Positions 30,982-31,395 of a stretch of DNA of 64,000 bases are shown here, one piece after another. Numbering within the stretch: the stretch's first letter is position 1; every line of letters starts with the position of its first letter. Source of the DNA: Escherichia coli. GTDB lineage: Bacteria; Pseudomonadota; Gammaproteobacteria; Enterobacterales; Enterobacteriaceae. The notes below the pieces were generated by a model. The model saw only the letters and a program-made list of their open reading frames with translations. It was not told the DNA's origin and ran no database searches. Made by a program: the position numbers and the translations under genes. The stretch lies in NCBI RefSeq assembly GCF_003334355.1, contig NZ_QOWP01000005.1; one strand, written 5' to 3'.

Positions 30982-31165
30982 AACAAAGCCGGGAATTACC
31001 CGGCTTTGTTATGGAATAAGGCGGTGCCTAACTCGACGTTTCGCCCGATGGTTGATATAGCTACGCTGATATCAGAAGTTGGACGGCAGGCACCTTGTTG
31101 TGCGTCATTCGAATTTTATGTAGCACGTCCCGAAGGGGCTGACATAAGTCGGTGAATGAGCCACT
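30982..31165 (-). ncRNA. glmY: Small regulatory RNA GlmY (about 184 nt)
   Basis: Reverse complement from 31165 reads AGTGGCTCATTCACCGACTTATGTCAGCCCCTTCGGGACG..., ending in terminator hairpin aaagccgggtaattcccggcttt plus U-run; immediately upstream of glrK. Confidence 0.9.
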
Positions 31166-31176
31166 GCTTACTATTA

Positions 31177-31192
31177 TGCAGTAACTGTGCCA
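31177..31192 (-). promoter_or_regulatory. Sigma-54 promoter of glmY (TGGCAC-N5-CTGCA)
   Basis: Reverse complement tggcacagttactgca; the -12 GC lies 13 nt upstream of the glmY 5' end. Confidence 0.8.
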
Positions 31193-31281
31193 ATAAAGAA
31201 AATAGTTTGGTAACGTACTGATTATACGTTGCTTTGAGGGATTTATGGCTTCTTCGCTATTTGAATGTAAATCAGCCACTG

Positions 31282-31395
31282 TGTCGCTAAAAAGAGACAA
31301 CTTAAGATAAACTTATTAGATTACAATAAAATCAATCATTTAAGTGTCGCCAGAAAGCGACACGGTAAACCACCCATTGTCGTGATTTACAGACA
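31282..31395. promoter_or_regulatory. Three TGTC-N10-GACA activator-binding sites upstream of glmY (GlrR/QseF UAS)
   Basis: tgtcgctaaaaagagaca (31282-31299), tgtcgccagaaagcgaca (31345-31362), tgtcgtgatttacagaca (31378-31395). Confidence 0.8.

Follow-up and report, generated by a model that had tools for sequence, protein, structure and literature searches.

The glmY locus and its surroundings

The region between purL and glrK in the 64-kb window, by which we mean the whole stretch of Escherichia coli DNA that was analyzed, almost certainly corresponds to glmY of E. coli with the whole of its published transcriptional control region. Neither the locus nor its promoter anatomy or mechanism is new, all three having been worked out experimentally in K-12 between 2008 and 2020. 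The small RNA gene, its promoter, and the GlrR sites upstream of it are all read on the minus strand. They lie within a 575-bp gap (30924..31498) that runs from the purL stop codon (31499) to the TTG start codon of glrK (30923). The sequence-only reading that preceded this work had maintained that the gap is not empty, and both its extent and the presence of the GlmY gene inside it were confirmed.

The genes on either side identify the neighborhood clearly. Upstream is purL (ORF 31499..35386, minus strand), which matches the NCBIfam PurL equivalog. Downstream on the same strand is glrK, also called qseE (29496..30923), encoding a sensor kinase of 475 amino acids that starts with TTG at 30923-30921; the gene is collinear with both b2556 of MG1655 and the qseE annotated in RefSeq. 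It is followed by qseG (28618..29331, minus strand), which encodes an outer-membrane lipoprotein on which GlrK/GlrR activity depends (NCBIfam NF007997 equivalog; score 359 bits, cut-off 234), and by glrR, or qseF (27294..28628, minus strand), which encodes the sigma-54-dependent response regulator (NCBIfam NF011695 GlrR equivalog; score 980 bits, cut-off 763). A GlnB equivalog (NCBIfam) is encoded downstream of glrR. The gene order purL–glmY–glrK–qseG–glrR–glnB is the same in the window and in MG1655. GlrR had been described as the product of a gene adjacent to glmY; glrR does belong to the downstream cluster, but glrK and qseG lie in between. The 801-bp region around glmY is present in a single copy in every one of the complete E. 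coli genomes searched (5426/5426), and the purL/glrK synteny around glmY extends to at least about 100 other species. Conservation of the order glmY-glrK-yfhG-glrR has also been described (PMC3045617).

Read 5' to 3' on the minus strand, the gap contains a REP-like palindrome, the purL terminator, three TGTC-N10-GACA repeats (ABS1 to ABS3), an AT-rich spacer, and TTGGCACAGTTACTGCATAAT. A 184-nt structured sequence begins 11 nt past TTGGCACAGTTACTGCATAAT, with a hairpin at its end, 58 bp before glrK. The purL terminator (31401..31422, minus strand) was called by a terminator scan as an 8-bp stem with five GC pairs followed by TTTTGTGT, and its T-tract abuts ABS1, bounding the glmY control region on the upstream side. 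The REP-like palindrome, CCGGATGCGGC...GCCGCATCCGG, occupies 31446-31473, between the purL stop codon and the purL terminator, and MG1655 is without 18 bp of it.

Identity and structure of the GlmY RNA

A covariance-model search had been put forward as the check on the proposed GlmY gene. When the whole window was searched with cmscan (Rfam 15), GlmY_tke1 (RF00128) was matched end to end at 31165..31018 on the minus strand (model positions 1-163 of 163), at 147.1 bits, where the gathering score is 33, and with an E value of 8e-33; it was the best family of clan CL00011. Together with the near-complete identity to K-12 glmY (b4441; 183 of 184 positions) and the shared synteny, this bears out the minus-strand GlmY sRNA of the sequence-only reading. 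We place the full-length 184-nt primary transcript at 30982..31165 (minus strand), with the A at 31165 as +1, since it is collinear with MG1655 b4441; the MG1655 glmY annotation, also 184 nt, maps to 31165..30982, and 30982 is exactly the lower bound that the earlier reading had given. The part of GlmY under the Rfam model (31018..31165, minus strand) holds the two stem-loop domains and has the length of the published 148-nt processed active form. In K-12, processing shortens the 184-nt transcript from the 3' end and leaves 148 nt (PMC4152352), and the agreement in length suggests that 31018 may be the processing end in this strain.

The 184-nt RNA has a minimum free energy of -64.2 kcal/mol (z = -5.5 against dinucleotide shuffles), and its fold consists of two stem-loop domains and a 12-bp terminator hairpin, the hairpin being present in both the minimum free energy and centroid structures. 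RNAalifold, applied to 45 species, gave compensatory double changes in 6 of 29 consensus pairs, including UA to AU in 14 of the 45 sequences and AU to GC in 8. Two stem-loop domains and a terminator, with covariation, are the conserved structure of GlmY, and this is the structure found here. The intrinsic terminator hairpin of glmY (30982..31010, minus strand) reads CAAAGCCGGG-uaauu-CCCGGCUUUG, then UUGUAUCU. Its stem also co-varies across species (GCCGGG/CCCGGC versus GGCAGGG/CCCTGCC). This was seen only by eye because MAFFT misaligned the variable 3' ends of GlmY, for which reason the RNAalifold consensus recovered the two main domains and not the terminator. A simple promoter/terminator scan called the purL terminator and not that of glmY, because the T run of the latter is interrupted (UUGUAUCU). 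In Yersinia (including Y. pestis) and Serratia, up to about 1170 nt separate GlmY from the start of glrK, compared with about 97 nt in Escherichia; GlmY of the Yersinia and Serratia loci also has a different sequence at its 3' end, and the aligned stretch contains no E. coli-type terminator.

Phylogenetic footprint of the control region

Conservation of the upstream region was assessed from loci retrieved with a DNA pattern based solely on the 3' part of GlmY. In a scan that covered a single genome for each species, the pattern found at least 120 loci, about 105 of which have purL upstream and/or glrK downstream. Fifteen matches with neither gene nearby were left out; of those listed, three are second copies in Serratia, and most others are non-enterobacterial. 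The alignment took in the 400 nt preceding and the 80 nt following the pattern in 102 non-identical Enterobacterales species plus the window, giving 103 sequences. As the 3' GlmY pattern alone was used to retrieve the loci, promoter conservation was not built in.

The footprint shows peaks of conservation at the ABS half-sites, at TAA...TTGAT between ABS2 and ABS3, at ATCA...TT between ABS3 and the promoter, at TGGCA and TGCAT, and over the RNA body, with unconserved spacers between these blocks. The two extra conserved blocks, on either side of ABS3, are exact matches to the IHF consensus. The second match in Serratia grimesii, S. plymuthica, and S. quinivorans, with both purL and glrK missing from its vicinity, is probably glmZ, a gene that contains the same segment.

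[quoted passage not shown]

The sigma-54 promoter TTGGCACAGTTACTGCA (31177..31193, minus strand) has GG at -26/-25 and GC at -14/-13 relative to 31165, so that the -24 GG and -12 GC elements stand 10 bp apart and at the right distance from the start. Its core motif, TGGCACAGTTACTGCA (TGGCAC-N5-CTGCA; 31192..31177, minus strand), has one mismatch to TGGCAC-N5-TTGCW. As a bare pattern with at most one mismatch, this is not unusual, with four matches in 64 kb against 3.3 expected, although the glmY motif is the only one of the four that keeps the GG. Because the pattern is not rare in a sequence of this length, its conservation was tested: TGGCA-N7-TGCW is present in 102 of the 103 aligned sequences, and in 100 of them the GG precedes the aligned +1 by 26 nt. 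Published ChIP-seq data include a sigma-54 site, OS24, that is assigned to glmY and whose motif, TTGGCACAGTTACTGCA, is identical to 31193-31177; glmY was also more highly expressed when sigma-54 was overexpressed (PMC4591121). The weight of the sigma-54 call rests on its position, its conservation, and these ChIP-seq data, all of which agree with the near-consensus, correctly spaced promoter that had been proposed. In K-12, where the promoter sequence is identical, glmY transcription depends on rpoN and the activator (PMC3045617, PMC6075780).

A weak sigma-70 promoter shares the same start site. Its -10 hexamer, CATAAT (31173..31178, minus strand), was read directly from the sequence and overlaps the sigma-54 -12 element. 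CATAAT is the characterized -10 element of the glmY sigma-70 promoter and is found in only a subset of genera (PMC3045617), a statement matched by its presence in 58 of our 103 sequences. The simple promoter scan of the window did not call this published promoter because its -35 element is weak. The sequence-only reading had said nothing of the sigma-70 promoter lying across the sigma-54 one, the pair of IHF sites, the shortening of the RNA from 184 to 148 nt, or the promoter of glrK, all of which are published.

Activator and IHF sites

Exact TGTC-N10-GACA sequences occur three times in the entire 64-kb window, against an expectation of 0.84, and all three fall here within 114 bp, a clustering far beyond chance (P ~1e-9, estimated from density). 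The distal GlrR/QseF site, ABS1 (TGTCTGTAAATCACGACA; 31378..31395, or -230..-213), is an exact palindromic match whose half-sites reach 90% conservation or more across the footprint. ABS2 (TGTCGCTTTCTGGCGACA; 31345..31362, or -197..-180) is among the best-conserved sites of the footprint. The proximal site, ABS3 (TGTCTCTTTTTAGCGACA; 31282..31299, or -134..-117), is again an exact match; its GACA half-site is conserved; only about half of the species match the C of TGTC, and many have TGTT instead. ABS1 and ABS2 are spaced 33 bp apart (31-33 bp in most species) and ABS2 and ABS3 63 bp apart (62-63 bp in most species), corresponding to approximately three and six helical turns, and the sites therefore lie roughly on one face of the helix. 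In K-12, three GlrR sites of the form TGTCN10GACA lie over 100 bp upstream of glmY; ABS2 and ABS3 are essential and ABS1 is dispensable (PMC3045617). The window thus has both the exact TGTC-N10-GACA (TGT-N12-ACA) repeats of the GlrR/QseF regulon and the cognate glrR gene. The three sites claimed by the sequence-only reading hold up as exact sequences at 31395-31378, 31362-31345, and 31299-31282; they are conserved across 102 species, and a GlrR equivalog is encoded downstream. Elsewhere in the window, two TGTT-N10-AACA palindromes, which fit the relaxed TGT-N12-ACA pattern, lie at 50165-50182 and 50239-50256, upstream of rpoE (start about 49855, minus strand).

Two IHF sites flank ABS3. The window contains seven exact matches to the IHF consensus in all, and these two fall within this 200-bp region. 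The site between ABS2 and ABS3 (AATCAATCATTTA; 31330..31342, plus strand) matches the consensus WATCARNNNNTTR exactly, with TAA and TTGAT positions that are 80-100% conserved. The other, between ABS3 and the promoter (AATCAGTACGTTA; 31211..31223, minus strand), is also an exact match, and its ATCA and TT positions are conserved. K-12 glmY has two IHF-like sites flanking ABS3, the distal one being essential (PMC3045617), and the site at 31330..31342 is probably that essential site. The arrangement is that of a promoter served by a bacterial enhancer-binding protein (bEBP): the activator sites lie over 100 bp upstream with an intervening IHF site, and both classes of site are conserved. Every glmY element described in PMC3045617 is present in the window at the expected place.

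Alternative readings of the region

Three entries in a mechanical ORF list overlap the RNA: a 76-aa frame (30925..31155, plus strand), a 79-aa frame (31061..31300, minus strand), and a 496-aa frame (29496..30986, minus strand) that consists of glrK with a 21-codon N-terminal extension. All are open frames with GTG or TTG starts, and loci of dual-function sRNAs exist, yet it is extremely improbable that either small frame encodes a real small protein or that glrK is 21 codons longer. The 76-aa and 79-aa frames match no NCBIfam family, and neither MG1655 nor the other RefSeq record compared annotates any of the three. Across 98 sequences, the longest sense ORF over GlmY varies from 0 to 140 aa (median 51) and the longest antisense ORF from 0 to 126 aa (median 48), and so no frame is conserved; conservation over the ORFs instead tracks the stems of the RNA, where compensatory changes occur. 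In 79 of 85 species the glrK sequences line up at the TTG start, whereas the open in-frame stretch preceding it ranges from 3 to 129 codons. Transcription of K-12 qseE begins 25 bp upstream of its start codon (PMC6075780), which maps to about 30948 in the window; the extension starts at 30986, upstream of this point, and therefore lies outside that mRNA. The protein-coding readings were rejected on these grounds, and the overlapping frames are chance ORFs; the sequence-only reading had already denied that the 76-aa frame and the glrK extension are genes. If the region encodes an RNA, it might in principle be the paralogue GlmZ, the base-pairing activator of glmS. The two RNAs are placed in one Rfam clan (CL00011) and can be aligned over most of their length, and glmZ of many Enterobacterales has the same sigma-54/GlrR/IHF promoter layout (PMC3045617). 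The probability of this is nevertheless practically nil: cmscan, which keeps the best family per clan, returned GlmY; the sequence is 183/184 identical to b4441 glmY; the synteny is purL-glmY-glrK and not glmZ-hemY; and E. coli glmZ has a sigma-70 promoter only (PMC3045617). The linker of the window RNA also has none of the glmS-complementary blocks found in that of GlmZ. Whole-molecule duplex energies against the glmS leader were dominated by long artificial interior loops and did not separate GlmY from GlmZ, so they were replaced by a comparison of the linker with the glmS anti-SD site, which gave -7.2 kcal/mol for GlmY and -19.2 kcal/mol for GlmZ, with K-12 glmS and glmZ as proxies. GlmZ (RF00083) is recognized by adjacent hemCDXY and a glmS-complementary linker, in place of which the window has purL/glrK synteny and weak pairing. 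The absence of a glmS-complementary linker is a mark of GlmY, and the GlmZ identity was rejected.

A further question is whether GlmY, accepted as such, is the 5' leader of a glmY-glrK-qseG-glrR operon, in which case sigma-54 and GlrR would autoregulate the two-component system through read-through. The terminator is only 58 bp from glrK, its U-tract is interrupted (UUGUAUCU), and the simple terminator scan made no call; in Proteus mirabilis, glmY-qseE-qseG-qseF are stated to form an operon (PMC8745638). We consider read-through unlikely in the present strain, as the glmY terminator hairpin is a strong 12-bp stem, and the terminator and spacer are identical to those of K-12, in which qseE expression from reporter fusions was the same whether or not the glmY locus was included and RT-PCR detected virtually no read-through (PMC6075780). 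Additionally, qseEGF of K-12 has its own sigma-70 promoter, with a start 25 bp upstream of the start codon (PMC6075780). Given that published start, we read a putative sigma-70 promoter of glrK-qseG-glrR in the 58-bp spacer (30948..30983, minus strand), with candidate -35 (TTGTAT, 30983-30978) and -10 (TAGCAT, 30960-30955) hexamers and a predicted start at about 30948.

Allelic variation and annotation

The glmY gene of K-12 MG1655 (b4441, formerly sroF/tke1) is the same gene as that of the window. The two strains are identical in the sigma-54 promoter, the CATAAT -10 hexamer, the three ABS, IHF site 2, the terminator, and the spacer before glrK, and the RNA is identical at 183 of 184 positions, the exception being U for A at GlmY position 59. 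This position and -3, where the window has G for C, are both variable columns of the alignment. About a dozen further substitutions fall in non-conserved spacers, including N positions of IHF site 1, which still fits the consensus in the window, and the palindrome just after purL has 18 extra bp. The window's purL-glrK intergenic allele is also found in NZ_CP026085.1, a record labeled as E. coli DH5alpha, in place of the MG1655 allele, which is unexpected for a K-12 derivative; the two alleles are about 17 substitutions and the 18-bp indel apart.

The only unusual item that we encountered lies just outside the glmY finding. Codon 4 of glrK (30914-30912, minus strand), 10 nt into the gene, is TGT (Cys) in the window versus TGG (Trp) in MG1655, the change being at 30912. 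The closest genomes, with one mismatch in 801 bp, have TGG (Trp) at this codon, and the 76-bp stretch around the Cys4 codon has an exact match in none of the 5426 complete E. coli genomes. At the protein level, residue 4 of GlrK is Trp in 77 of 85 Enterobacterales species. The Trp4Cys change may be a private variant or a sequencing error. If real, it could conceivably alter membrane insertion of the kinase or its signaling, and hence the sigma-54-dependent output of glmY in this strain, but we think this very unlikely.

The locus holds nothing for discovery and is textbook material, and the 5'-end mapping and gel shift that the sequence-only reading suggested have already been published for K-12. 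Its value lies elsewhere. As a positive control, it shows that a reader without tools can recognize an sRNA together with an enhancer-type promoter. It also bears on annotation quality, with mechanical ORF calling placing spurious ORFs and an over-long glrK over glmY. When two RefSeq records were compared, glmY was annotated in MG1655 but not in the PGAP-annotated record, and in none of the best 10 matches was glmY listed under the match. Other Rfam matches above the gathering score in the window are AsrC, the antisense RNA of rseC (46849-47680, plus strand), rncO (43852-44066, minus strand), the iscRS stability element (1320-1429, minus strand), OhsC (40363-40439, plus strand), naRNA4 (2275-2346, minus strand), and ES036 (54147-54189, minus strand).

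Proposed regulation and comparison with known systems

By analogy with K-12, whose promoter is identical, phosphorylated GlrR (QseF) would bind the three ABS, and bending of the DNA by IHF would allow GlrR to contact sigma-54 RNA polymerase and drive open-complex formation. The sigma-70 promoter would provide low basal transcription from the same start site, and the 184-nt transcript would be trimmed at its 3' end to 148 nt. In K-12, RapZ free of glucosamine-6-phosphate (GlcN6P) stimulates QseE/QseF phosphorylation and hence glmY transcription, with negative feedback via GlmY (PMC7073468), and GlmY acts as a decoy for RapZ, an RNase E adaptor, thereby protecting GlmZ, the activator of glmS (PMC4152352). 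Following this model, scarcity of GlcN6P in the window strain would leave RapZ free to stimulate GlrK/GlrR and raise glmY transcription. GlmY, as a mimic of GlmZ, would then sequester RapZ, so that GlmZ would escape RNase E cleavage, and the spared GlmZ would pair with glmS mRNA and increase GlmS synthesis.

A related system is GlmZ (RF00083), a homologous sRNA with similar stem-loop domains that, like GlmY, is bound by RapZ. In Yersinia, Salmonella, and others, glmZ has the same layout of a sigma-54 promoter, three ABS, and IHF sites as glmY (PMC3045617). GlmZ differs in that its gene adjoins hemY, its linker pairs with glmS, and in E. coli it has a sigma-70 promoter only. Another point of comparison is rpoE P2, the other E. 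coli sigma-54 promoter for which activation by QseF has been published (PMC6075780, PMC6358824). It shares its activator with glmY and also overlaps a sigma-70 promoter, and rpoE lies in the same window; unlike those of glmY, however, its sites fit only the relaxed TGT-N12-ACA pattern and not TGTC-N10-GACA.

More broadly, IHF-dependent sigma-54 promoters served by NtrC-type bEBPs include glnHp2 and nifH. The glmY promoter resembles this type in its enhancer-like sites, which lie over 100 bp upstream, in an IHF bend before the -24/-12 elements, and in its response-regulator bEBP. It differs from this type in that its product is an sRNA and not an mRNA, and in that a sigma-70 promoter shares its start site.
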